Source: Minisyncoccia bacterium (GTDB lineage: Bacteria; Patescibacteriota; Minisyncoccia; Phycocordibacterales; UBA918). Taken from it: 64,000 nucleotides of DNA. Shown here piece after piece: positions 34,389 through 47,657 of the stretch. Under the pieces are notes generated by a model that was given only the letters and a program-made list of their open reading frames with translations, ran no database searches and was not told the DNA's origin. The stretch spans positions 12,895-76,894 of the forward strand of contig JBGSJJ010000009.1 in the NCBI GenBank assembly GCA_041742075.1, in the 5' to 3' direction. Both the position numbers and the translations under genes were made by a program. Position 1 is the first letter of the stretch. The number at the start of each line of letters is the position of its first letter.

Positions 34389-35126
34389 CTAATTTGAAGC
34401 GTTTTCAGCAAGATATGACTCAAGTTGAGTCTCGTCAACGGGTGTATCTGGGTGGTGTTGGTTGTAGATTGAAACTACGTTCTGAACAGTTTCGGGAGTA
34501 CAAACACGGTTTTCTGGTGAAAGCGTCGCTAGTACAAGGTCAAACACTTCGTTGCCACAACTATTTTTGCGAATTAAGTAATTTACACCAGCACTTGACC
34601 ACCCGTCTCTCGGTCCATTGTTTGGCAGTGATTCATTATTACGTTCCGGACGGCCATTAGTAGGGGTTGAAAGAAAACGCCAGTCACGAAACCATATACC
34701 TTTCGTGAGCGATCCTACAGAGCCGTGCGCCACTTTGGTGTTTAATACGTTTAAGTAATTGCTAAATCTTGTTGTTTCGTCTTTTAGGTCCCCATCAGTC
34801 ACACGAATATGTGTTCCGTGTTTATACAACTTAAAGTCGTCAGCGTCACTTTCAATACTGGGCTCATTGTCGTCAGTAATGGACACGCCAAGTGTTTTGA
34901 AAAAGTTTATTCTCAAGCTCTCTATTGAAGTTCTACTAGAGATATCAATCTTACACTCAACAAACTGAGACGCTGCCGCTAAGAGACTTTCCTGCAAGTT
35001 CGGATTTCCCTGAGAAAGTTCATACGACTTACGAAGGAGTGAGAACAGTTCCGCCTCAGTTTTTATCTCAAATAGTGGCTCTGACTCCTGCTCACTTTCA
35101 TGTGCGTTAGGTGGAAATTGCTCCAT
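34389..35126 (-). CDS. hypothetical protein (245 aa)
   Basis: starts MEQFPPNAHESEQE 7 nt downstream of the murA stop; the long upstream extension in the ORF track is out-of-frame overlap with murA. Confidence 0.45.
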   Translation of the reverse strand: MEQFPPNAHESEQESEPLFEIKTEAELFSLLRKSYELSQGNPNLQESLLAAASQFVECKIDISSRTSIESLRINFFKTLGVSITDDNEPSIESDADDFKLYKHGTHIRVTDGDLKDETTRFSNYLNVLNTKVAHGSVGSLTKGIWFRDWRFLSTPTNGRPERNNESLPNNGPRDGWSSAGVNYLIRKNSCGNEVFDLVLATLSPENRVCTPETVQNVVSIYNQHHPDTPVDETQLESYLAENASN

Positions 35127-35133
35127 ATTTTTT

Positions 35134-36636
35134 TTAAAACTCTTCAATGTACGACACGTCGGCACCAAGACTATTGAGGCGCTCAACGAGTTTTTCGTAA
35201 CCGCGGTTAATACTGTAGATGTTGCGCAGTACCGAGCGCCCACTGGCACCAAGCATAGCAATAAGAAGGATGGTGGCTGGGCGGAGAGCCGGCGGACAGA
35301 TAAGTTCAGTTGGGCGGAGTTTGGTCGGGCCGTTGATGTAAATACGGTGCGGGTCAGCGAGCACCGTGTCAGCACCGAGTTTGTCGAGCTCTGTGAAGTA
35401 GATGGCGCGCTTCTCATAGACCCAGTCGTGAATGAGTGTTTGTCCGGTTGACTGGGTGGCAATTACGGCAAAGAAGGGAAGATTGTCTATATTGAGTCCT
35501 GGGTAGGGGCGCGCGTAGACCTTTTCATGGAGCGCCATGAGCTTCGATGGTTTGGTAGTTATGTCGACTAAGCGAGTCATACCGTTGTGGCTCAAGTACG
35601 GCTTACTCTTAGTGTATTTAAAGCCCATTTTTTCAAGCTTGAGGAGTTCGAGTTCAAGGAAATCAATCGGACAGCGAGTAATGGTAATCGCTGACTGAGT
35701 AACGATAGCGGTCGCCAAGAAGAACATACTATCGGTCGGGTCTTCAGACAGGGTGTAGGTAATAGTTTCATGTATCTGCTTTACACCAGTTACGGTCAGG
35801 GTGGTCGTACCAACCCCTTCGATTTTTACACCACAGGCAATTAAAAATGCACAGACTTCCTGCACCATGTAGTTGGCTGAAGCGTACTTAATGACGGTGG
35901 TTGATGGCGTCAGAGCGGCAGCAAAGAGGGCGTTTTCTGTTACGGTGTCGCCGGACTCGTAGAGAATAATCTCCGTTGGTTTTTTAGGTACATGCTTCAC
36001 CACAAAGGCATCGTCAGTAGTTTTAATATCTACCCCAAAGTGTTCCAGCGCAAAAAAGTGTGGTTGGACAGTTCGACTACCAAGCTTGCATCCGCCTGAC
36101 TGAGGAAGAGAAAAAGTGGCGAGCTTATGCATAAGGGGACCGATGAACATGACGATACTTCTGGTCTTCCTGGCTGCTTCGACGTCAATCGCTTTGAGAT
36201 TGAATTTCTTTGGCGGAGTGAGGTGTACGTCTTTGTCCTTCCACTCAATTTTCATACCGATACTCTCGAGTACCTCAATAATGCGGTGCACTTCTTCTAT
36301 GCGGGGCATCTGTTTTAAAATAGTCGTTCCTTCATTTAAAAGGGAAGCGCAGAGGAGGCCGACAGCGCCATTTTTGGAAGTGTTGGTTTCGATAGTGCCT
36401 GTCAGTTTTTTGCCACCCTCAATTGCGATGTTGACCGAACCCGGTTGGGCTGACACGATGTTGCGCTTTAAAGCGGTACTCACTTTACGAAGTAGGTCAG
36501 TTGAAACATTTTGCTTGCCTGACTCGATGCGCGCCACGGCGCTTTGAGTACTTTTGATAAGTAGAGCGAGTTCCTTCTGTGTTAGCCCAACATCTTCCCG
36601 AATCTGCGCAATTCTTGCTCCGATGTGTGTTTGCAT
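35134..36636 (-). CDS. murA: UDP-N-acetylglucosamine 1-carboxyvinyltransferase fused to an N-terminal XRE-family HTH domain
   Basis: residues ~1-60 HTH (GLTQKELALLIKSTQSAVARIESGKQ); remainder is MurA/EPSP-synthase fold (GGKKLTGTIETNTSKNGAVGLLCASLL, C-terminal RGYEKLVERLNSLGADV). Confidence 0.75.
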   Translation of the reverse strand: MQTHIGARIAQIREDVGLTQKELALLIKSTQSAVARIESGKQNVSTDLLRKVSTALKRNIVSAQPGSVNIAIEGGKKLTGTIETNTSKNGAVGLLCASLLNEGTTILKQMPRIEEVHRIIEVLESIGMKIEWKDKDVHLTPPKKFNLKAIDVEAARKTRSIVMFIGPLMHKLATFSLPQSGGCKLGSRTVQPHFFALEHFGVDIKTTDDAFVVKHVPKKPTEIILYESGDTVTENALFAAALTPSTTVIKYASANYMVQEVCAFLIACGVKIEGVGTTTLTVTGVKQIHETITYTLSEDPTDSMFFLATAIVTQSAITITRCPIDFLELELLKLEKMGFKYTKSKPYLSHNGMTRLVDITTKPSKLMALHEKVYARPYPGLNIDNLPFFAVIATQSTGQTLIHDWVYEKRAIYFTELDKLGADTVLADPHRIYINGPTKLRPTELICPPALRPATILLIAMLGASGRSVLRNIYSINRGYEKLVERLNSLGADVSYIEEF

Positions 36637-36649
36637 ATACACAACATGA

Positions 36650-36667
36650 TATAGCGTATCTGCTATA
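36650..36667. promoter_or_regulatory. palindromic candidate operator TATAGC-N6-GCTATA upstream of HTH-murA (extra half-site at 36726-36731 before mreB)
   Basis: perfect 6-6-6 inverted repeat 14 nt upstream of the HTH-murA start, in the divergent murA/mreB intergenic region. Confidence 0.3.
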
Positions 36668-36748
36668 GTGCAAGCCTACCACTGTGGAGTGTGGTTTTTA
36701 TGCTTTCGTTTCAATTTTCCTCGATTTAGGCTACTATAGCTGTCTTAT

Positions 36749-37762
36749 ATGTTTAATCGATTTACTCCAAAGATCGGTATTGATCTCGGCACCACCACAG
36801 TCCTCGTGTATATACCCGGACAGGGAATTGTTCTCAATGAACCATCAGTCGTGGCAATTTCAAGCGATAACAAAGTGTTGGCCGTCGGTAGTGAAGCAAA
36901 ACGAATGATTGGGCGAACACCGGAAAACATCCGTGCCTATCGACCGATGAAAGACGGCGTGATTGCCGACTATCGGGTGACTGAAGCCATGCTTCGCTAT
37001 TTTCTGCGGAAGGCACTCGGGAAATACCAACTCTTCAGACCTGAAGTGATGATTTCTGTGCCAGCTGGCGTGACCTCAACCGAAAAGCGGGCGGTGGTTG
37101 AAGCAGCGGCGAACGCCGGAGCAAAAAACACCTACGTGGTTAAGGAGCCGATTCTAGCAGCGATTGGCGCCGGGATACCTATATATGAAGCGCAGGGACA
37201 TATGATTGTCGACATAGGAGGTGGAACTATCGACGTGGCAGTAATTGCGCTCGGGGGCATTGTGGCTGCCAACTCCGTGAAGTGTGCCGGCAACCGCATA
37301 GACTCGGCTATCATTGACTATGTTAAGAAAAGTAAAAATCTTTCAATAGGTGAGAAAACCGCCGAAGAAGTAAAAATTCAAATCGGTTCAGCGCTTCCCC
37401 TGGAGGAAGAGCTGGTCATGACTATTAAGGGACGCGATGTTGTCTCTGGTTTGCCCCGAACAACTGAAATTAAAACGAACGAAATCGTGCGCGCTATCTC
37501 AAAAGAACTCCGTGACATGATTCGCGCTATTAAGGACGTGTTTCAAAATACGCCACCTGAGCTGTCTTCAGACATTATTGATGGCGGGATTATTATGACC
37601 GGCGGTACTTCACAATTAAGAAACTTTCCTGAACTAATTCGGCGTCGAACGGGAGTAAAAGCAGTGGTGGCAGACCAAGCACTTTTCTGTGTGGTGAAGG
37701 GGACGGGGATTGCGCTGGAACACCTAGACACCTACAAGCGCTCCATCTTAGCAAAGCGATAA
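36749..37762 (+). CDS. mreB: rod shape-determining actin-like protein MreB (paralog 1, isolated)
   Basis: IGIDLGTTTVLVY phosphate-1 motif, DIGGGT phosphate-2, full-length actin fold. Confidence 0.85.
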   Translation: MFNRFTPKIGIDLGTTTVLVYIPGQGIVLNEPSVVAISSDNKVLAVGSEAKRMIGRTPENIRAYRPMKDGVIADYRVTEAMLRYFLRKALGKYQLFRPEVMISVPAGVTSTEKRAVVEAAANAGAKNTYVVKEPILAAIGAGIPIYEAQGHMIVDIGGGTIDVAVIALGGIVAANSVKCAGNRIDSAIIDYVKKSKNLSIGEKTAEEVKIQIGSALPLEEELVMTIKGRDVVSGLPRTTEIKTNEIVRAISKELRDMIRAIKDVFQNTPPELSSDIIDGGIIMTGGTSQLRNFPELIRRRTGVKAVVADQALFCVVKGTGIALEHLDTYKRSILAKR

Positions 37763-38027
37763 TTCTCGGAAATTACTTTGTCGTGCCGCTAATTTTTTCA
37801 GTCACCGTATATGAAATACGGCTTCTTCTAAAATTAACTGCTCTTCGCGTACTTCCTCGAGAATTATCGCTTTGCACCTGATTACATCAAATTGGACAGT
37901 TTTTGAATACGTCTTTGTTCAAAATCACCGTTTGGGAATTTGCCTAATACTTTATTTTGTAATACAGGAAAGTCTTGTCCACCCATGAGGTGACGTGAGA
38001 AGTGCCAGAGCAACATATAATAGATGT

Positions 38028-40802
38028 ATGGCTGAAGGTATCCCAAAAAGATTCTCGTCCCCCGAGGAAGAGATTGCGTATTTGCGTGAGCAGATAGCGA
38101 CGCGCGAGCGTGAGTTGTTTAACCGTTCGGGAGAGACAGACAGGACTGACCACGAAACCGTGGCCAAGGCTGAACTCCATGAGTACGGTACGTTTACCCC
38201 GAACACGGTACTTGAAAAAGACCACCAGCTCAAACCTGACGAGCTCGCTCGGCGGGTCGAGCAGGTTGACTCAGCGAGAGAGCCGGTAGAAGAAATTGTG
38301 CAGATAGCGATAGAAAGGGGTGTTCACAATGCTCTCACGGTACTTGAAAAAACTAAGAACGCCTTCATGACTGACGAAGTACACCGTCGCTTGATTGAGC
38401 ATGTAAAGTCTGGCGCGACCGTTCAGAACTTAAAAGAAGGTGTCCCGCCGTGGCAGGTACTACATATGACGTTGTTTGAAGTGTCACTACCTGAAGTAAA
38501 CGAGCAAAAAGGTAAGTCGTACCAGCTGTCTGAGCTCGTTAGCATGATGGAACAGTTTTATGCTGGTATGCAGAATGTGGGTCAGTATGAAACCAGCACC
38601 CACTACGCGATAGAAATTGCCGTAGCTGATAAGAGTGACGACATTGTTTTTTATGTCGCGGTACCGAGTCAGTATGTCGACCTGTTTCAAAAACATCTTC
38701 TTTCACTGTATCCGCACGCGCATTTGACGGAGCAGATTCATGACTACAACATCTTTGTGGCCGGTGGAAGTTCTTTGGTTGCCAGGGCAGAGCTCAAAAA
38801 GCACCACATCTATCCGATTGCGACGAAAGAATCATTTGAATCTGATCCGCTCGCAGTTATCTTAAACGCCTTTTCAAAAATTGAACGTGAAGGTGGGGGA
38901 GCCGCTTTGCAGTTTGTTATTCGTCGTGCTCCCCAAAAATACACCGGGGTGTATGAAGGGATTATTAAACGCGTTCGTGGCGGTATGAAAGTGTCTGACG
39001 CTATAGCGAGAAGTTCGCTTGGTGGTGAGGTGGTGGCCAGTTTAAAAGAGCTCGTGTTTTCAAATTCTGCTAAGAAAAAAGAAGAAGCACTACCAACCCG
39101 AGACCATATTGACACAGAAGCACTCGAACTGTTTGCAGAGAAAATTAAGCACCCAGTCTTGGACGTTAATATACGTATCGCCGTGTCTTCAACGACTGAG
39201 TCTCGCTCAAAACAAATTTTATCTGAAATCGAATCAACGTTTAATCAGTTTGAACGTACCCAAAGTAATCGATTCGTGTTTTCAGTCTTGAAGGGGAGTG
39301 CACTTACACAAGCCGTGAAAGCATTTTCCTTCAGGGATTTTGTACCCGCGACCGCATTACCGCTGACGCTCCGCGAGCTTGCCACCGTGCTTCACTTTCC
39401 GGGTGCGGGTATCGATAGCTCACCACAGTTTAAGCAATCAAGAGCTAAGACGGCGTCAGCGCCAACCAATACACCAACTACTGGTACGCTCCTTGGTTTT
39501 AACGACCATCGAGGAGAAAAGAAGGATATCTACATCAGTGAGCTCGATCGCATGCGCCATTTCTACATCATTGGTCAGACTGGTACGGGTAAGACGACTC
39601 TGATGAAGAACATGATTGTGCAAGACATCGAGGCTGGTCACGGTGTTTGCTTTATTGACCCTCACGGTACCGACATAGAAGATATCGTGAGTTGTATTCC
39701 TAAGGAACGTGAAAAGGATTTAATTTATTTTGACCCGTCACAATTTGACTCAGTGGTTGGACTCAACATGCTTGAGTATGACGAAAAGAAGCCTGAACAG
39801 AAGACGTTTGTGGTAAACGAACTGTTTTCTATTTTCCAAAAACTCTATGGGGCAAACCCAGAGTCGATGGGCCCGATGTTTGAGCAGTACTTCCGCAACG
39901 CGACGTTGCTTGTGATGGAAGACCCAAGTAGCGGAAATACCCTCATGGATATTAGTCGGGTAATGGCAGACAGTAAGTACCGGCGGATGAAACTAGAGAA
40001 AGCGAAAAATCCAGTCGTGGTGCAGTTTTGGCGTGAGATAGCCACCAAGGCAGGTGGAGAAGCGTCACTTGAAAACATTGTGCCGTACATCGTTTCAAAG
40101 TTCGATGTCTTCACCGCCAACGACTACATGCGACCAATCATTGGTCAACAAAAATCTTCGTTTAACTTCAGGCAGATTATGGATGAGCGGAAGATACTTC
40201 TCGTGAACCTTTCTAAAGGTCGCTTAGGGGAAATTAATGCCAACCTTATCGGTATGATTGTGGTGGGAAAACTTTTGATGGCGGCGCTGTCGCGAGTTGA
40301 TGACGCGAGTCGAAGTTTCCCACCGTTTTACTTACACATGGACGAGTTCCAAAACGTTTCGACGAACTCTATCTCAGCGATTCTGTCTGAAGCGCGCAAG
40401 TATAAGCTTGGCCTGACTATTGCTCACCAATTTATCGCTCAACTGGATGAAAAAATAAAAGAATCGGTGTTTGGAAACGTGGGGTCAATGGCGGCGTTTC
40501 GAGTTGGTCCAGAAGATGCACAGTTTCTTGAGCATCAGTACCACCCAACCTTCACCGCTGCCGACCTCATGAATGTACCCAACCAAACTGCGTATATGCG
40601 GATACTCGCGAGCGGTATTCCGACTAAACCATTTAGTCTCAGCACCTTTGCCCCGCCAGTGACTGACCCAACTCGTGTTCAAGCGCTTATTGCTCAAAGC
40701 AATAGCCGTTACGGACGACCACGAGACGAGATTGAAGCAGAGATTCATAAACGTTATCAAAAAGAAACAGTGCCAACCGAGAATCCGTTTGCTAAGATGT
40801 AA
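38028..40802 (+). CDS. soluble FtsK/HerA/VirD4(TraD/TraG)-superfamily P-loop ATPase with novel ~460-aa N-terminal region
   Basis: Walker A IIGQTGTGKTT followed by CFIDPHG (HerA/T4CP-like), Walker B YLHMDEFQN, sensor TIAHQFIAQL; no TM helices; ATG has no RBS but TATAAT 7 nt upstream (possible leaderless). Confidence 0.7.
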   Translation: MAEGIPKRFSSPEEEIAYLREQIATRERELFNRSGETDRTDHETVAKAELHEYGTFTPNTVLEKDHQLKPDELARRVEQVDSAREPVEEIVQIAIERGVHNALTVLEKTKNAFMTDEVHRRLIEHVKSGATVQNLKEGVPPWQVLHMTLFEVSLPEVNEQKGKSYQLSELVSMMEQFYAGMQNVGQYETSTHYAIEIAVADKSDDIVFYVAVPSQYVDLFQKHLLSLYPHAHLTEQIHDYNIFVAGGSSLVARAELKKHHIYPIATKESFESDPLAVILNAFSKIEREGGGAALQFVIRRAPQKYTGVYEGIIKRVRGGMKVSDAIARSSLGGEVVASLKELVFSNSAKKKEEALPTRDHIDTEALELFAEKIKHPVLDVNIRIAVSSTTESRSKQILSEIESTFNQFERTQSNRFVFSVLKGSALTQAVKAFSFRDFVPATALPLTLRELATVLHFPGAGIDSSPQFKQSRAKTASAPTNTPTTGTLLGFNDHRGEKKDIYISELDRMRHFYIIGQTGTGKTTLMKNMIVQDIEAGHGVCFIDPHGTDIEDIVSCIPKEREKDLIYFDPSQFDSVVGLNMLEYDEKKPEQKTFVVNELFSIFQKLYGANPESMGPMFEQYFRNATLLVMEDPSSGNTLMDISRVMADSKYRRMKLEKAKNPVVVQFWREIATKAGGEASLENIVPYIVSKFDVFTANDYMRPIIGQQKSSFNFRQIMDERKILLVNLSKGRLGEINANLIGMIVVGKLLMAALSRVDDASRSFPPFYLHMDEFQNVSTNSISAILSEARKYKLGLTIAHQFIAQLDEKIKESVFGNVGSMAAFRVGPEDAQFLEHQYHPTFTAADLMNVPNQTAYMRILASGIPTKPFSLSTFAPPVTDPTRVQALIAQSNSRYGRPRDEIEAEIHKRYQKETVPTENPFAKM

Positions 40803-40808
40803 GTACGT

Positions 40809-43800
40809 ATGAAAGAAGAGTGGGGATTAGAAAGTAGAGGGAAAAAATACAACAGACCACAGCGTGGTCGTGTTCGTGATGTAGTTGTACCACCTCCGCT
40901 ACCGAGAGAGGTAGTTAAAGAAAAACCGTCAGCTGATAGTGTTTGGAAAGCGGAGGTTGAGAAGCTGCTAAACAAGACCGAAGTAAATACTGAACAACCA
41001 GAAGCAGTAGGAGAAATACCCGGAGAGGAAGTTTTGCAAGAAGTGACAGAGGAGCATGGTGCTGCCGGTGGTACTGCAGAACTGTCACTGGTAGATCATG
41101 AGGAACGGAAAGAATTAGCTCGAAAAGCCGTGCGCATGTTTAATGAGGTTCGGTTACTTAAAGACTCAATTACGACTCATGAAAGTGGACAGTCGTCACC
41201 TAACCTCGAGATCGATGGCTATGGTGACTTTCAAAATGCATATGCATTACTTAAAGATCAACTTAAACTAGTAGAATGGTCAAAAAATAAAGACGAGGAA
41301 ATTACAGCTGAAGTAGTTAGTGAAATTGAACGTCTTTATGGCGTATTATCAGAAGCTCATACACGAGTCGAACAGGCTGCTCTAGAAAGAGAAATCGAAC
41401 TTGCCTATGAAGATGAAGAAGCGCCGACTGCTCAAATAGAAGCATCAACCTCAGAAATCAACCAGCCAAGCAATCAAAATGAACTAATTACTGGTAAAGA
41501 ACCAGACAAGCATAAGGTGGCGGCTGTAGAATTTACTGTAAAGGAACCTAGCATAAGAGTCGGAAAATTCTACCAAATGCTTATAAATAATAATCTGACT
41601 GAAGTTCGTGTTATAGCGAAAGCAAATGAAGCAAACGGGAGCGCATTTATAGTAAGCCATGAAGTAGATGGTCAAGCATTACTCAGGGAATCTGTGAAAG
41701 CTGATGACCTGATTGAGATCAAAGAAAAATCTACTCCTAGTAACAGATTTGGTAAGCGGTATTCTACACTCGCCAGGACTAGCGACAGCAATCTTGTTTT
41801 AGGAGAGTCTTCTTTAGCTGAAGCTGACCTAGGTGAAGCTATTTCAAGTGAACAAGAAATGGCTACTCTTAAATCTGAAGCAGAAACTACTTCTGGTAAA
41901 AAAGCACATCAAATTGGCCAAAAGTACTTACTACTAATTGGGAATCAGCCTATAGAAGTAACTATAGTTGATGTAGACGAAAATGGTCTAGCTCAAGTCA
42001 CTTACGATAAAGACGGAAAGCACTTTTCAAAGTTTTTTGTCAAACCCGAACAACTTTCAGAAATTGCTCCTCAAACTACGGCTGAACTTAATACGTTTGT
42101 CAGTGAAAAATTGAAAAACGATGAAGGATCTTTTATTAACCAAGTAAGCGAAGTCTTAGAAGAAAATCCTGAACTGACTGAAGAAGTATACAATGCAAAA
42201 GTATTACCACTATTTAAGGAGAGACTTTTGAGTGCTGGCTACACAAGTGACGAGATTCAGAATTTATTCGCCTTAAATTTTCAGTTAGAACAGAAAGCGC
42301 ATAGTAACTTTAATAAGGAAACGGGCACGTTAAAAACTGAAGACGTCTTGAATCGTGCACGCAGTATTGAGGTTAGTATTTTAAATAAAAAACCGAAACA
42401 GGAAGAAAACCCACCTGAACTTCCTGTAAACAACGGTTTCTCAGCTGTGTCTCAAGTAACTACTCCACCCTCTTTTATAAAAGATAACCGAAATCTTAAT
42501 AAACGTGACTCAGTTAGATTTGAGAAATGGCAAAATAAAGAATGGACACCAGGTGAGTATCTGGATTTAGACGAACAAGCGGAACTGTCGAAACAAACGG
42601 ACCCACGAAATATAAGAATAATAACTGAAAATATTTCCGAGGATGAAGTATTTTTGAAAAAAATGCGCGGTGAGTACGAGTCCTTGGTAGCAGAAGCTGA
42701 TAGGCTCGGTCGGAATCCGCTGACACCATCAACACTCAACATTGCGATTATGTCGCTTGATAGAGCAATCAGAGTGTACGAAGAACGACTTGCAAACGAA
42801 GGCCAGTCTGATAATGAAATTACGCAAATGGAATCTGACCGCCTACGCGAAGAACTGATTGAATTGCGAACGCTTATTTGTGAACCTAAGGCACACATTG
42901 AAGGAGAAGTAGAGGCTACCCAGACTGGAACAAACACTGACGAAAATCCACACGTTGAAACAGAAGAGTCCTTAGCTACAGAGCCACCAACACCGGAAGA
43001 TACCGAGCCACCGCGCGAATCACCAGCAGAAGACGAAAAAAGTGCCGAGGCGTTTCTAAAAGGTGAAGTCTTAGGTAAAGAAGTGTCTCTAGCTGAAGTA
43101 GCACTAGGGAAAATGTTTTATGTACCGCGTAAGGCTGGTGGATATACACTTTGTCAGGTTGTAGACATAGATCAAACCTCTGGTGATGTCCAGCTAGCAG
43201 GGCATGACGAAGCTGGAAAATTTACTAAATGGGTACACCACAGTGTACTCTCAGTTGAAGAGCCCTTTAAAGATGGAGAAGTAAAGCCAGATGAACAGCA
43301 GGTAAGAGAAGCTAGGGAGATAGAAGAAGCAGAAGTCGTAGAATCTTTGTCCACTGATACACAGATACCAGAAACAACGAAAGAAAACTATCGACCTAAA
43401 TCAGCTGAACGAATAGCACTTGATGAAAAGCATAAAGAATTTTCTTCCGCTAAGAAAGCGTATTATAGTCAGGAGTTTCTCGCGCAAAAAAAAGAGTTAG
43501 CGCAACTTGAAGCTGAGCTAAAAAATCCAGCTCACTCAGACCGAGCCAGAGATGAAATGCGTGGCCGACGCGATGCGCTCTTTACTGCAGCGGAGCAAAT
43601 TGCCTACCGCTATAAAGAAGCCAAGCAACCGTACGCCGAAGCACTCCAAGAGTATTTGACTAAGAAAGAAACAAAGGCTGGTACTTCACTCACGCCTGAA
43701 CAAGCGAAAGCGATGGTAGGCGGGCGCTTCTTTGGTAAAACCAAAGCCGAGCGGTATACAGGAACTGGTGTCATAGGAAGAGACGGCTTGGAAAAACAAG

Positions 43801-45767
43801 TGGGTTTACTAGACAGCGAGCTACAAAATCCAATTCATACTGAAATGGAAAAAGAAGCGTTGCGGGTTAAACGTCTGGAGCTTGTAGATAGAATTAATAA
43901 AATTCCTGCAGAACACACCGCTGATGTTTCATACAAGTCCTATCGAGAGCAAGAGCTCGCGCTTCGCGAAGCGGTGCTTTCGTTTGAGCAAAAAGGTACT
44001 TTTGTACGTATGAAGGAAAAGTTCGATAAGCTAAATCCAAAAGCAAAAATTGCAGTTGGGGGAGCCATCTTAGGAGCTTCAGTTTGGAATGTGGGTCTTA
44101 TACCGGTTTTAGCTGGTTTGACAGCTGGTGTAGGAGTTCGCTTAGGAGTAAAAAAAGGTGGCTACGCCACGATAGATGCACTCCGGAATCAAGGTAGGCA
44201 AAATAAACTCAGTGCTTTTGACGCCAGTAATTTAGTGCAATTTGAGTCGGCACTCGATAAGGGTGAAGAACGAGAAAAAACAGCGAAGAAGGCTGTCAGT
44301 GGCGTTGCATTCGTGAGTGGAGTAGCAGCTGGTGCTACGGCTGGTCTTGGTGCCAGAGGGGTTGGTGTGGACGAGGTGTTTCAAAATTTAGTGGACAGTG
44401 TGACGCAAAAATCAGGTACTGGCTCAGGAACTTTTGTTCCTAGTGCTGATCAAGCGCCATCGATAACTCAAAGTGAAGTCCCTCTTACATACGAAAAAGA
44501 TCCGATTGTAATTACCATCGAACCTGGTCAGTCCGGGTACGTCGAATTAGATGGAGTAGTAGCAACCCCAGATGCGTCAGCGACTAATGTTGCTGGTGAG
44601 GGTGCTGCAATCGGGGGAGACGAAGTGGTGAAGGAGGTTCCTGTCGCGGATTTGCAGGTAGAAGTGTCTGAAGCACCAGCTCGCAAAGAAATGACGGGTA
44701 CAGAACCTCAAGCTTTCGAAAAAGGAAATATTGCACCGGTAGAAGAGGTTGTAAAGAAACCGCTTGAGTTTAGCAGTGCGGAACGCTACCAGACACATTT
44801 TCACACTGTCCCGAACCCTGACAAAATTGACCAAAATGCTCCAGCCTTTGAAAAAGCAAGTACTGTGTCTGACATTCTCTTTGAGCGCTGGAAAGTTGGT
44901 CAGTTTGACCATCTTGGGTGGGTGCCACAGCATGGGGAAGTGAACGAGACGGAATTTTTGCAAGTGATGAATGAAGCAATTCATACTGCCTCTGCAGACA
45001 CTCTCAGAGCAATGATGATTGATAGTGGAGACATTGATGTTGTGTATCCCGGTGAAAGGCTCGACATGGTACCAATTCTTTATCAAATGTTTCCACCAGA
45101 AGTCAGTAGTACCGTTAGTCAAGCTTCTGAGGCAGTCTCTTTGTCGCCTGAACCAGAAGTTACTCCTACGGTTGAAGCCGCACCTCTCTCTTCTGTGAAC
45201 GAAGAGTTAACAGTTCAGTCTACTCTAGTACCGGTAGAAGTAGATGTGTCACCTAATGATCTTGAATCAGTTGTTTCTTACGCGAATCGGTATGATTCGC
45301 TCGAGGCAAACCAGCTTGCAGAAATTATTACCGAAGCAAAAGAGCGGGTTATGGAAAATATGAGTGAGTCAGACACGATGGCGCTCTCGGCTGAAGAAAT
45401 TAATGAGCGGATTAAAACTGAAGTTGATGTGCTTGCCACCACGGAGCTTATAGCTAAAACACTTAACGCCAGTGGTCAGTCTGGTGAGGGAGTGGTCGAG
45501 TTTATGAATGTCGCTTATCAAGATATCAAAAACTTTCCTCCTGAAAAAGCCGTTGGAATTGACTTTGAGACTGCTAAGTTTCTCTTTAATTACGCTCAGT
45601 CTCAATTAGATTCACTCAGTCAAGAAGTTAAGAGTCAAATAGCTTCTCCAAGCTTAAGCAATCTAGTCGAAGCGCTGGTGCGAGATGGCCGACTAGAAGT
45701 ATCAGGTGACCAACATACGCTCGTACAGCCAGGAAGTCGAAATCACGTGCTAAACCTCAGAAACTAA
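40809..45767 (+). CDS. giant (1652 aa) acidic coiled-coil protein with central Gly-rich hydrophobic segment
   Basis: 7-nt gap after the ATPase gene; Glu/Lys-rich low complexity with long heptad-like stretches; residues ~1075-1200 contain AVGGAILGASVWNVGLIPVLAGLTAGVGV and VAFVSGVAAGATAGLGARGVG. Confidence 0.6.
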   Translation: MKEEWGLESRGKKYNRPQRGRVRDVVVPPPLPREVVKEKPSADSVWKAEVEKLLNKTEVNTEQPEAVGEIPGEEVLQEVTEEHGAAGGTAELSLVDHEERKELARKAVRMFNEVRLLKDSITTHESGQSSPNLEIDGYGDFQNAYALLKDQLKLVEWSKNKDEEITAEVVSEIERLYGVLSEAHTRVEQAALEREIELAYEDEEAPTAQIEASTSEINQPSNQNELITGKEPDKHKVAAVEFTVKEPSIRVGKFYQMLINNNLTEVRVIAKANEANGSAFIVSHEVDGQALLRESVKADDLIEIKEKSTPSNRFGKRYSTLARTSDSNLVLGESSLAEADLGEAISSEQEMATLKSEAETTSGKKAHQIGQKYLLLIGNQPIEVTIVDVDENGLAQVTYDKDGKHFSKFFVKPEQLSEIAPQTTAELNTFVSEKLKNDEGSFINQVSEVLEENPELTEEVYNAKVLPLFKERLLSAGYTSDEIQNLFALNFQLEQKAHSNFNKETGTLKTEDVLNRARSIEVSILNKKPKQEENPPELPVNNGFSAVSQVTTPPSFIKDNRNLNKRDSVRFEKWQNKEWTPGEYLDLDEQAELSKQTDPRNIRIITENISEDEVFLKKMRGEYESLVAEADRLGRNPLTPSTLNIAIMSLDRAIRVYEERLANEGQSDNEITQMESDRLREELIELRTLICEPKAHIEGEVEATQTGTNTDENPHVETEESLATEPPTPEDTEPPRESPAEDEKSAEAFLKGEVLGKEVSLAEVALGKMFYVPRKAGGYTLCQVVDIDQTSGDVQLAGHDEAGKFTKWVHHSVLSVEEPFKDGEVKPDEQQVREAREIEEAEVVESLSTDTQIPETTKENYRPKSAERIALDEKHKEFSSAKKAYYSQEFLAQKKELAQLEAELKNPAHSDRARDEMRGRRDALFTAAEQIAYRYKEAKQPYAEALQEYLTKKETKAGTSLTPEQAKAMVGGRFFGKTKAERYTGTGVIGRDGLEKQVGLLDSELQNPIHTEMEKEALRVKRLELVDRINKIPAEHTADVSYKSYREQELALREAVLSFEQKGTFVRMKEKFDKLNPKAKIAVGGAILGASVWNVGLIPVLAGLTAGVGVRLGVKKGGYATIDALRNQGRQNKLSAFDASNLVQFESALDKGEEREKTAKKAVSGVAFVSGVAAGATAGLGARGVGVDEVFQNLVDSVTQKSGTGSGTFVPSADQAPSITQSEVPLTYEKDPIVITIEPGQSGYVELDGVVATPDASATNVAGEGAAIGGDEVVKEVPVADLQVEVSEAPARKEMTGTEPQAFEKGNIAPVEEVVKKPLEFSSAERYQTHFHTVPNPDKIDQNAPAFEKASTVSDILFERWKVGQFDHLGWVPQHGEVNETEFLQVMNEAIHTASADTLRAMMIDSGDIDVVYPGERLDMVPILYQMFPPEVSSTVSQASEAVSLSPEPEVTPTVEAAPLSSVNEELTVQSTLVPVEVDVSPNDLESVVSYANRYDSLEANQLAEIITEAKERVMENMSESDTMALSAEEINERIKTEVDVLATTELIAKTLNASGQSGEGVVEFMNVAYQDIKNFPPEKAVGIDFETAKFLFNYAQSQLDSLSQEVKSQIASPSLSNLVEALVRDGRLEVSGDQHTLVQPGSRNHVLNLRN

Positions 45768-45769
45768 CT

Positions 45770-46120
45770 ATGGAACCACAACAACTTACAACTGATGTTG
45801 GAAAACTAATTGGCCTTGAGAGCTTAAACGAATTTGAGCAGGCTGAGTTTTTAGCGCAAATCGGAGAACTAATTATCGAGTCGGCTTTACTGCGACTGAC
45901 CGAAACACTGACTCCTGATCAACAGATGGCTATCAACCACTACCTCGAAACCGAACCAACCCCAGAAGTGTTTATGAGTTATTTGGTTACTCATCATGCA
46001 TCGTTTCAAACTATTCTTGACGAAGAAATAATTGCGTTCAAAGAAGAGTGTATCGCTGTGATGGGACGTGGTGCACTTAAAGAAATTTCGCAACCCATGC
46101 ACGCGACTGTGTTAAAGTAA
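45770..46120 (+). CDS. small acidic hypothetical protein (116 aa)
   Basis: starts 3 nt after the giant ORF stop; helical, no known motif. Confidence 0.45.
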   Translation: MEPQQLTTDVGKLIGLESLNEFEQAEFLAQIGELIIESALLRLTETLTPDQQMAINHYLETEPTPEVFMSYLVTHHASFQTILDEEIIAFKEECIAVMGRGALKEISQPMHATVLK

Positions 46121-46157
46121 TACACAGGCAACTTAAAAATTTGTAACAAAATTTTTA

Positions 46158-47657
46158 TTGCTATCGTGTATACTAATAGTAATTATGGGAGGTGATCTAG
46201 GTTCTTCAACTGTCGGTTCTTTTGCACCGCATACAGCGGGTACGGTTTTTGATATTACCAAAGAAATCGACGCTCTGGCTGTCCTTAAAGCTATTCACCG
46301 GAGTCAGATAGACGTCGGCACAAAAAATACCCTCCGCGATGCGGTGTTTGACTATCGGCAAAACCTTGATCAAGCCACCCTCACCAATGCCTGTGAGTTA
46401 TTTGCTCAAGTTGGAATTATTGTTATTGGGTGTACGCCGGATTCAGTACCAGCGACTGAAACAGTATTACCCGCTACACAAACGCCTTCAGCAAGTGAAG
46501 AACGTCCACCCGTTTCAAAGCTAAGAATCGGTCGCCCGAGGCCAACTTTTGGGGTGAGTACAACTCCAGTTGTGGCAACTCAAAAACCAGTCGAGCGAGC
46601 CAGTACTGAACCTATGACTCCGACTGCTTCTTATGAAGCAAGTGCACCCGTTGCCCCTCAGGTAGCAGTACCTAGAGAGAACGAAGCAATGGTTGCAGAA
46701 GCCGTGATAGAGGGACCTGCGGAACCAGTTGTGACAGCAGAACCGACAGCTCAGCCCATTAGTGTTCCTACTACGTCTACGGCACTCCCAGTTAAGGCGG
46801 TTGATCGTATAAACGAAATTAAGAAACTTGTTAACGAAAAAATCGGCAATCCGGTGAATTTGATTGAGGCGCACAATGAACTCGGTCGCGAGTATATGAA
46901 CGCACTTCTTGAGGCAATGAAAAAAAGTAACGGTGGACAAGCCTCTGAACTGGCTGCTGCTATGGAGAGACTTGAAAAGGCTTTCGCGCTCGTAGAAGCG
47001 ACCCTCGATAAAAGTGTTCATGTTGAGACGACACCAGTGGTACACGTTCCGATTGAGCCAGTCGTAACGCCAGAGCCGGTAGTTGAAGAACCTCCAGTTT
47101 CAGTTCAGGTTGAGACAGTGCAAGAAACCGTTACACCGCTTAGTCCGCCACCAGAACCTAAAGAAGAGGTACCCGTGTCTACTCCTGTAGTTGCGCCGGT
47201 AATCACGTCGGTCGCTAAGACTAAACAGGTAGAAGAGCTTATGCATAAGCAGATGATTGAATCATCAGAGAAAGCTGAGATTGCTGAGCGTATCGCTGAA
47301 GAGAAGATGGACCCGGTTATGGTGTCTGAAGTTACCAGTGGCCTCCGTCAACTTTTATCAGAGTGGAGCTTGTTTAAAAGTAGTGGTATTTTTGGTACCG
47401 GTCCAAGTGGTATTGACCACGCTCTCTATAAGAAGCTGAGCTCACTTCCTATGCAAGCGGTGATTGCTGGTCGGTTTGAAGGTTCAACACCACAGATACG
47501 ACAAAGTATCTCTGACTATATGAATGGGTGGCGCTATGAAGAGGGAGTGGTATTTGATTACGGAGAATCGTTTGAGCACTACTTACGTCGCGTGATTCGC
47601 CACATTCTTGATAAAAAAGCTCAGCAGGCTAACCCTCTTTTGACTAAGAAACTCTAG
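46158..47657 (+). CDS. Pro/Val/Glu/Thr-rich protein with conserved C-terminal globular domain (hypothetical)
   Basis: 499 aa; long PxxP/PVV low-complexity linker then a ~150-aa C-terminal domain (GIFGTGPSGIDHALYKKL...). Confidence 0.45.
   Translation: MLSCILIVIMGGDLGSSTVGSFAPHTAGTVFDITKEIDALAVLKAIHRSQIDVGTKNTLRDAVFDYRQNLDQATLTNACELFAQVGIIVIGCTPDSVPATETVLPATQTPSASEERPPVSKLRIGRPRPTFGVSTTPVVATQKPVERASTEPMTPTASYEASAPVAPQVAVPRENEAMVAEAVIEGPAEPVVTAEPTAQPISVPTTSTALPVKAVDRINEIKKLVNEKIGNPVNLIEAHNELGREYMNALLEAMKKSNGGQASELAAAMERLEKAFALVEATLDKSVHVETTPVVHVPIEPVVTPEPVVEEPPVSVQVETVQETVTPLSPPPEPKEEVPVSTPVVAPVITSVAKTKQVEELMHKQMIESSEKAEIAERIAEEKMDPVMVSEVTSGLRQLLSEWSLFKSSGIFGTGPSGIDHALYKKLSSLPMQAVIAGRFEGSTPQIRQSISDYMNGWRYEEGVVFDYGESFEHYLRRVIRHILDKKAQQANPLLTKKL

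Follow-up and report, generated by a model that had tools for sequence, protein, structure and literature searches.

Why should an enzyme of cell-wall synthesis carry a DNA-binding domain, and which DNA would that domain read? The question is raised by a gene in a 64,000-nucleotide stretch of contig JBGSJJ010000009.1 from a Minisyncoccia bacterium (the window, by which the whole of that stretch is meant). The gene, here called HTH-murA, encodes an XRE-type helix-turn-helix (HTH) domain fused to the N-terminus of a full-length MurA; it is divergent from mreB, and a palindrome lies directly upstream of it. MurA carries out the first committed step of peptidoglycan synthesis and thereby controls entry into the pathway; it is the target of fosfomycin, and the controls known to act on it are mostly post-translational, namely proteolysis and feedback inhibition. 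The comparative analysis described here points to an answer that we regard as probable: HTH-MurA would be a trigger enzyme, that is, an active MurA which uses its N-terminal XRE HTH to repress its own promoter.

The fused protein

In the list of open reading frames (ORFs), the frame at 35134..36642 on the minus strand is unbroken in the window and places the HTH and MurA in one polypeptide. The start codon is the ATG at 36636 and not the GTG at 36642: relatives carry an in-frame ATG at the aligned position, and the length of P0001, a database protein of 500 aa which is identical to the HTH-MurA of the window, agrees with that start. The coordinates of all features are collected in Table 1.

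The conservation of the fusion was evaluated in a comparison set made up of the window and loci L001-L080, the latter being the best 80 of 424 stretches which were found to encode HTH-MurA relatives in a scan of one genome per species (81 loci and 696 kb in total). Palindrome counts use the 79 loci with upstream sequence, and protein statistics use the 78 intact ORFs. Fused ORFs of 480-560 aa are intact in 78 of the 81 loci, which come from Paceibacteria/Parcubacteria relatives, and these 78 orthologues share a mean pairwise identity of 77.5% across the MurA domain, against 70% across the HTH and likewise 70% across the linker. Both domains are also present in all of the 120 best database homologues (77-100% identity), which carry the names Kaiserbacteria, Nomurabacteria and Parcubacteria. 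A search of 1.84 billion cluster representatives returned fused clusters at 31-53% identity (P0121, P0126, P0132, P0133, P0142, P0144, P0145, P0209 and P0258) together with close unfused relatives, P0122 (59% identity) and then P0123, P0128 and P0131. All of these comparisons mark the fusion as genuine, ancient and maintained by selection. The original prediction had read the gene as an XRE HTH joined to a full-length MurA, and this is borne out by the domain search, which gives HTH_3 plus EPSP_synthase, and by the presence of the fusion in relatives. The alternative, that the HTH is a separate upstream gene joined to murA by an artefact of assembly or gene calling, is refuted by the continuous frame in the window and in 78 independent assemblies, by the 120 fused homologues and by the 424 stretches, and its probability is negligible.

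The HTH domain matches the Pfam families HTH_3 (E 2e-11, 44.2 bits against a cutoff of 23) and HTH_31 (31.4 bits against a cutoff of 27), and HTH_19 is matched as well. In the AlphaFold2 model it forms four helices with high confidence (residues 5-15, 20-26, 31-39 and 46-56), and among the 78 orthologues conservation reaches at least 90% in the motif TTQSAiARiEsGkQN, which includes the recognition helix. The nearest solved relatives of the HTH by sequence in the PDB are C.AhdI, ClgR, HigA, PlcR and MBF1, all of which bind DNA; RodZ is not among the PDB sequence matches, and the Pfam search gave no match to HTH_25.

The remainder of the protein matches EPSP_synthase (PF00275) over residues 75-489 (E 4e-44, profile positions 2-417 of 417), scores 311.5 bits against the cutoff of 297 for the MurA subfamily PRK09369 in NCBIfam, and in a phmmer search matches MurA chains of the PDB along the whole of those chains (E 1e-40 to 1e-48). 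The AlphaFold2 model of the whole protein has a mean pLDDT of 94.6 and a pTM of 0.88, and in Foldseek it reaches a TM score of 0.95 to 1uae and 3sg1, with a root-mean-square deviation of 1.8-1.9 Å to 1uae, 1a2n and 3sg1. In an alignment of 87 sequences, HTH-MurA and its clade retain K22, N23, R91, C115, R120, D305, R331, R371 and R397 (E. coli numbering), among them the catalytic residues Lys22, Arg91, Cys115, Arg120, Asp305 and Arg397. The 66 canonical MurA sequences of the alignment show little or no variation in eight of these nine columns; at Cys115 they are divided between Cys (36) and Asp (30), an alternation already known at this position. Asp369 is replaced by Ala in the HTH-MurA of the window, as it is in unfused relatives from the Candidate Phyla Radiation (CPR). 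With the catalytic residues intact, the MurA domain looks catalytically active, as far as alignment and model allow it to be judged.

The palindrome upstream of HTH-murA

The palindrome consists of two arms (36650-36655 and 36662-36667) separated by a spacer of 6 nt, and it ends 13 nt before the ATG at 36636 and 7 nt before the GTG at 36642, so that the distance of 14 nt in the original prediction was about right. Considered in the window alone, it does not exceed chance, as 1.16 copies of the core with at most one mismatch are expected per 64 kb and one is found. Its significance therefore derives from the comparison across loci. Each of the 79 loci contains a single exact copy of ATAGC-N6-GCTAT, always directly upstream of the fused gene and mostly 9-14 nt from the ATG; the apparent exception in L075 is due to a mis-set start. 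The surrounding intergenic DNA cannot otherwise be aligned among relatives, and the consensus of 78 loci anchored on the site is taTATAGCATATATGCTATAcT. No other exact copy exists elsewhere in the 696 kb of related loci, and a search for a regulon gave no further site there or, even with one mismatch, in the window; this sample is less than one genome-equivalent, so a few distant sites are possible. The palindrome is thus, on comparative grounds, a conserved cis-element tied to HTH-murA.

The conservation around the site is asymmetric. On the gene-proximal side the T at position 10 (76/78), the A at position 16 (71/78) and the T at position 18 (70/78) produce an extended -10 element, TGnTATAnT. 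On the distal side the mirror positions are less well conserved (57/78 and 56/78) and the final T of the -10 has no conserved counterpart, while the ATAGC is kept. Because this counterpart is lacking, the distal half is not a promoter element, and the asymmetry therefore suggests that the right half serves both as promoter and as half-site, and that something other than promoter activity maintains the left half. Only 8-9 nt separate the -10 hexamer from the ATG, and the mRNA of HTH-murA is for this reason probably leaderless or nearly so. The RNA fold of the palindrome region does not differ from that of shuffled sequences (z = 0.0), and it has no match in Rfam.

The palindrome in unfused and distantly related loci

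If the palindrome is the binding site of the fused HTH, then its presence and its sequence can be followed in relatives in which the HTH is missing or has diverged. The unfused relative P0122 (59% identity; locus L081), which is divergent from mreB, retains TGCTATACT but shows AATGC where ATAGC would be expected. Two further unfused loci, L087 and L088, lie downstream of tRNA genes and have no such palindrome, and none is found in L086, whose protein (P0126) is of fused length with an N-terminus that no longer matches HTH profiles. Six of the distant fused clusters carry a 5+6+5 palindrome at the same place as in the clade of the window, with arm sequences of their own (Table 1). Both arms change together, as is expected for a symmetric dimer site. 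Recognition helices with T[T/K]QS pair with ATAGC, and those with TSQS pair with ATATC (four cases), ATCTC or ATAAC, in a sample that is small and phylogenetically non-independent. The palindromes upstream of P0144 and P0145 are AT-rich 6+5+6 repeats of different spacing and were rejected as evidence.

One of these clusters, P0121 in L085 (GCA_018603905.1, on a contig of 877 kb), is a catalytically intact HTH-MurA of 53% identity from a high-GC genome, in a different neighbourhood without mreB. Several catalytic residues, including Arg91, Cys115 and Arg120, are gone from seven other fused clusters (P0132, P0133, P0142, P0144, P0145, P0209 and P0258). Genomic context could be judged for six of the seven, the contig of P0145 (L090, 2.8 kb) being too short, and four of the six sit among genes for peptidoglycan precursors. 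In L082 and L092 the degenerate gene is divergent from a canonical murA-murB pair, in which murA retains the Cys115 and Arg120 motif, and ddl and/or a Mur ligase gene follow. In L213 the divergent operon comprises an unknown gene, a Mur ligase gene and murA, and a Mur ligase gene follows the degenerate gene; in L214 the latter lies downstream of murB and relA. The palindrome falls within the short shared intergenic region in L082, L092 and L213. These degenerate relatives look like dedicated regulators derived from the HTH-MurA design.

The same palindrome beside other HTH genes

A scan of metagenomes for the 18-mer TATAGCATATATGCTATA gave at least 120 stretches, with 122 occurrences in 674 kb, and the fractions reported here describe that sample. 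HTH-MurA adjoins 11 of the 122 listed occurrences. With a profile built from the HTHs of the fusions (E at most 1e-3), a gene for a related HTH, oriented away from the site, was found no more than 800 nt downstream of it for 77 of the 122 listed occurrences; where both flanks reach at least 900 nt the number is 35 of 50, and the other 15 have no HTH nearby. Conversely, 77 of the 84 HTH matches in the listed 674 kb sit within 800 nt downstream of a site. The same profile detects nothing besides the fusions in the 696 kb of control loci, and the window contains no further HTH gene of this type.

Two types of context recur. The first consists of solo XRE regulators, roughly 100 aa long, in which an N-terminal extension precedes the HTH (GTKQSVISRLESGRANPS), and the second of pairs formed by a Gp49/RelE-type toxin and an HTH antitoxin (GTTQSAVARIE.G.QN). 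By exact look-up, these proteins include XRE regulators from Daviesbacteria and from Blackburnbacteria, as well as a RelE/ParE toxin from a bacterium of a candidate phylum. Examples of the site, among metagenome loci L093-L212, are found in L093 (819-836), L095 (925-942) and L131 (460-477). Judged from these sequence associations, one operator sequence is common to unrelated operons of other CPR lineages.

Proposed mechanism and alternative explanations

In the proposed mechanism, two HTH domains would bind the two half-sites of ATAGC-N6-GCTAT, the centres of which are 11 bp apart, close to a single turn of the helix. Since the operator lies across the -10 element of the HTH-murA promoter, the bound protein would block RNA polymerase, by which means MurA would set its own transcription through negative autoregulation. 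The binding of HTH-MurA as a dimer, the repression and the position of the transcription start are features that we infer from sequence. Direct autoregulation, which the original prediction proposed along with the fusion, is supported because the site is invariant in the 79 loci, overlaps the extended -10, is missing in unfused relatives and co-varies in distant ones, and recurs as the same 18-mer beside related HTHs. These two parts of the prediction stand, the second on comparative evidence, while the part which took a half-site near mreB for a second binding site does not (see below). More speculatively, the MurA body could adjust DNA binding according to its ligand state, for which the candidates would be the open and closed states with UDP-N-acetylglucosamine (UDP-GlcNAc) and phosphoenolpyruvate (PEP), or the 'dormant' complex with UDP-N-acetylmuramic acid (UDP-MurNAc), which is known from other MurA enzymes.

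Several observations weigh against autoregulation by an active HTH-MurA. The enzyme scores 299.5 with the murA equivalog TIGR01072, below the cutoff of 392.7, and must therefore be regarded as a divergent MurA. No second murA is present in the 64-kb window, to which that search was confined. The site of the window, which reads TATAGCAGATACGCTATAtc, keeps both half-sites but not the TG and final T of its relatives, having CG for TG and TATATC for TATAnT, and a simple promoter scan gave no sigma-70 match in the window, so that the promoter is placed by the consensus of the relatives. MurA enzymes are usually monomers, which sits uneasily with a dimer on the DNA, and the site could be bound in trans by other CPR proteins that share the recognition helix.

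The last of these points can be developed into an explanation of its own, which we consider unlikely: the palindrome would be bound by a separately encoded XRE protein, a solo regulator or an antitoxin, and the HTH of MurA would be otherwise used or would be a passive remnant. The 18-mer in front of solo HTH genes and Gp49/HTH operons does imply that proteins which read the site exist outside MurA, but the one-to-one co-occurrence of palindrome and fused HTH (79/79), the absence of the palindrome from three unfused relatives, its co-variation with the fused HTH in distant clusters and the conservation of the recognition helix (at least 90%) all favour the fused domain as the reader, and neither the window nor the 696 kb encodes another such HTH. 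A different use of the domain is suggested by RodZ, which binds MreB through an XRE-like HTH: with mreB as the divergent neighbour in 78 related loci, the HTH might be a protein-protein module that tethers MurA to MreB filaments. We judge this very improbable, and rejected it as the principal explanation, given that the domain matches HTH_3, HTH_31 and HTH_19 and not HTH_25, that its solved relatives are DNA binders among which RodZ is absent, that the unfused L081 has mreB as a neighbour too, which makes the synteny independent of the HTH, and that the palindrome and its link to related HTH proteins would be left unexplained. A tether would be compatible with DNA binding and does not exclude it.

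There is, finally, a slighter chance still that the palindrome is no operator at all, and is instead either a promoter only, made of a pair of divergent -10 boxes that overlap, or a hairpin formed by the RNA of a 5' leader. The right half does match an extended -10, and a stem of 6-7 bp is possible. The distal half, however, lacks the mirror of the final T, and mreB has a -35 and a -10 of its own; the fold z of 0.0, the lack of an Rfam match and the arms, which are invariant within the clade and do not co-vary there, argue against a hairpin, and the strong association with genes of one HTH subfamily is foreign to both forms of this explanation. Repression of its own promoter by HTH-MurA is accordingly the explanation that we retain. 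On it can be built a larger and tentative picture, possible rather than probable, in which the MurA body is the sensor of a one-protein feedback loop, the dead paralogues are transcription factors derived from an enzyme, and there is cross-talk between toxin-antitoxin systems and the cell wall. Such cross-talk could occur because CPR antitoxins would read the same operator.

The mreB promoter and the gene neighbourhood

The divergent gene mreB is the upstream neighbour of HTH-murA in 78 related loci and is adjacent to it in 69. Relatives conserve TTGTrG (-35), 17 nt and TACTAT (-10) upstream of mreB, and the corresponding elements can be recognized in the window (Table 1). The half-site TATAGC which had been placed 18 nt upstream of mreB is actually located at 36735-36740, 8 nt before the ATG at 36749, and its interpretation as a second operator is not supported, given its overlap with the conserved TACTAT and its lack of conservation: 9/78 loci have TATAGC or GCTATA at most 45 nt from the mreB ATG, and some of these occurrences are the main palindrome itself. 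Since TACTAT is conserved and TATAGC is not, the half-site is best regarded as the tail of the mreB -10 box. The hexamer, counted as TATAGC or GCTATA, occurs 37 times in the window against an expectation of 20.5, a number reached by 1 of 100 shuffles, and a lone copy is for that reason unremarkable. About 57 nt (median) separate the main palindrome from the mreB ATG, and the palindrome falls just beyond the -35 of mreB. HTH-MurA might thereby also affect mreB, a speculative consequence for which the back-to-back arrangement of the promoters is the one reason.

Some further features of the region may be recorded. The mreB -10 ends 11 nt before the mreB ATG, and the leader of mreB may be very short or absent. 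Between the palindrome and the mreB promoter there is a weak terminator-like hairpin on the plus strand (36678-36695), with 5 pairs followed by a T-run. Beyond mreB, here and in 58 related loci, lies a gene for a P-loop ATPase similar to VirD4/TraG/HerA (37995..40802; weak Pfam matches), which is followed in the window by ORFs of 1652 aa and 499 aa without Pfam matches (37995-47657 for the whole group). On the other side, an ORF on the minus strand between murA and priA (34389-35120) has no Pfam match. Of the 80 related loci, 1 has a homologue of this ORF and 43 have priA immediately after murA, and the intervening ORF thus looks like a lineage-specific insertion.

Table 1. Features of the HTH-murA region in the window, and HTH-MurA-like genes and palindromes of distant fused clusters; each degenerate gene has its own palindrome of the ATATC-N6-GATAT type
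Sequence	Feature	Position	Strand	Basis or remark
Window	HTH-murA coding sequence, 500 aa (stop codon 35134-35136)	35134..36636	-	ORF list, conserved ATG, identical 500-aa database protein P0001, Pfam and NCBIfam
Window	XRE/Cro-C1-type HTH, residues 5-56	36469..36624	-	Pfam HTH_3; AlphaFold2 pLDDT 86-98; nearest solved sequences are DNA-binding XRE proteins
Window	Recognition helix QSAVARIES, residues 31-39	36520..36546	-	Translation; conservation in 78 orthologues; motif recurs beside the same palindrome elsewhere
Window	Linker between HTH and MurA, residues 57-67	36436..36468	-	AlphaFold2: no regular secondary structure, block pLDDT ~68
Window	MurA (UDP-GlcNAc 1-carboxyvinyltransferase) domain, residues 68-500	35137..36435	-	Pfam, NCBIfam, phmmer, Foldseek
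Window	Catalytic Cys codon, Cys183 (Cys115 of E. coli), motif SGGCKLGSR	36088..36090	-	Translation, alignment columns
Window	Putative palindromic operator TATAGC-N6-GCTATA (core ATAGC-N6-GCTAT, 36651-36666)	36650-36667	.	Sequence; conservation in 79/79 loci
Window	Predicted -10 hexamer of the HTH-murA promoter, TATATC (TATAnT after TG in most relatives)	36648..36653	-	Consensus of relatives
Window	Divergent mreB	36749..37762	+	Pfam MreB_Mbl E 1e-129, NCBIfam PRK13927
Window	Predicted mreB promoter: TTTCAA 36709-36714, 17 nt, TACTAT 36732-36737	36709..36737	+	Sequence; conservation in relatives
L085	Palindrome of P0121, ATCTCATATGTGAGAT (ATCTC-N6-GAGAT)			Same position
L082	Degenerate HTH-MurA-like gene, P0133	4001-5503		Palindrome ATATCATATATGATAT (ATATC-N6-GATAT), directly after TTGACA
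L091	Degenerate HTH-MurA-like gene, P0209	1474-2952		Palindrome ATATCAGATATGATAT (ATATC-N6-GATAT), inside TGATATAAT
L213	Degenerate HTH-MurA-like gene, P0132	3498-5003		Palindrome ATATCATATATGATAT (ATATC-N6-GATAT), abuts ATG
L214	Degenerate HTH-MurA-like gene, P0258	4001-5467		Palindrome ATATCAAATATGATAT (ATATC-N6-GATAT)
L092	Degenerate HTH-MurA-like gene, P0142	4001-5530		Palindrome ATAACATATATGCTAT (ATAAC-N6-GCTAT), one mismatch

Implications

If the proposed mechanism is correct, then control of its own promoter by MurA would represent a new and very direct way of balancing the synthesis of cell-wall precursors, and it would operate in bacteria with tiny genomes and few regulators. If ligand control applies as well, occupancy by UDP-GlcNAc and PEP or by UDP-MurNAc would shift the HTH pair on the operator, and the precursor pool would directly set the transcription of murA and possibly, through the back-to-back promoter, that of mreB. 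The dead HTH-MurA-like paralogues would then constitute a previously undescribed family of transcription factors for the mur clusters of the CPR, and the family as a whole would provide a natural series which leads from an active enzyme-repressor to a catalytically dead regulator inside mur clusters. The combination of a short invariant operator and a small HTH would make the system experimentally tractable, although the organisms are uncultured. A search of full-text literature in a limited collection found no description of an HTH-MurA fusion or of MurA as a trigger enzyme. The DNA-binding half of the protein is invisible in annotation, because thousands of database entries are labelled simply as MurA.

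Comparison with known systems

The enzyme half resembles the canonical MurA of E. coli and E. cloacae (1uae, 1naw) in its fold, its catalytic residues and its full-length match, and differs from it in about 67 additional N-terminal residues (HTH and linker), in an identity of 22-26% in structural alignments, and in the change of Asp369 to Ala. The DNA-binding half is close to the solo XRE regulators of the CPR and to the antitoxins paired with Gp49 (HigB/RelE-like) toxins, with which it shares up to 50% identity in the HTH, the motif T[T/K]QSxxxR[I/L/M]E and the same 18-bp palindrome. Unlike XRE antitoxins of the HigA type, it has no toxin partner, its neighbours are mreB and an unannotated ORF, and its HTH is carried on an enzyme of 430 aa. 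The 434 repressor and Cro, as well as C.AhdI, have a similarly small HTH and read, as dimers, a short palindrome with a centre of 6 bp; their half-site sequence is different, and HTH-MurA has neither a phage nor a restriction-modification context and is fused to an enzyme. With RodZ it has in common an XRE-like HTH that is genetically linked to mreB, but it is without a transmembrane or periplasmic part and without HTH_25, everything past residue 67 has the MurA fold, and the conserved palindrome favours DNA binding.

The nearest functional parallel would be with the trigger enzymes or enzyme-repressors, such as the biotin ligase-repressor BirA, PutA and NadR, which likewise combine an enzyme and a DNA-binding domain in one polypeptide, with an operator at their own promoter or at one of their pathway. 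HTH-MurA would differ from these proteins in that the enzyme is MurA and the HTH is of the XRE/Cro-C1 type, in that control by ligand is in its case a proposal, and in that its design appears to have given rise to catalytically dead descendants.

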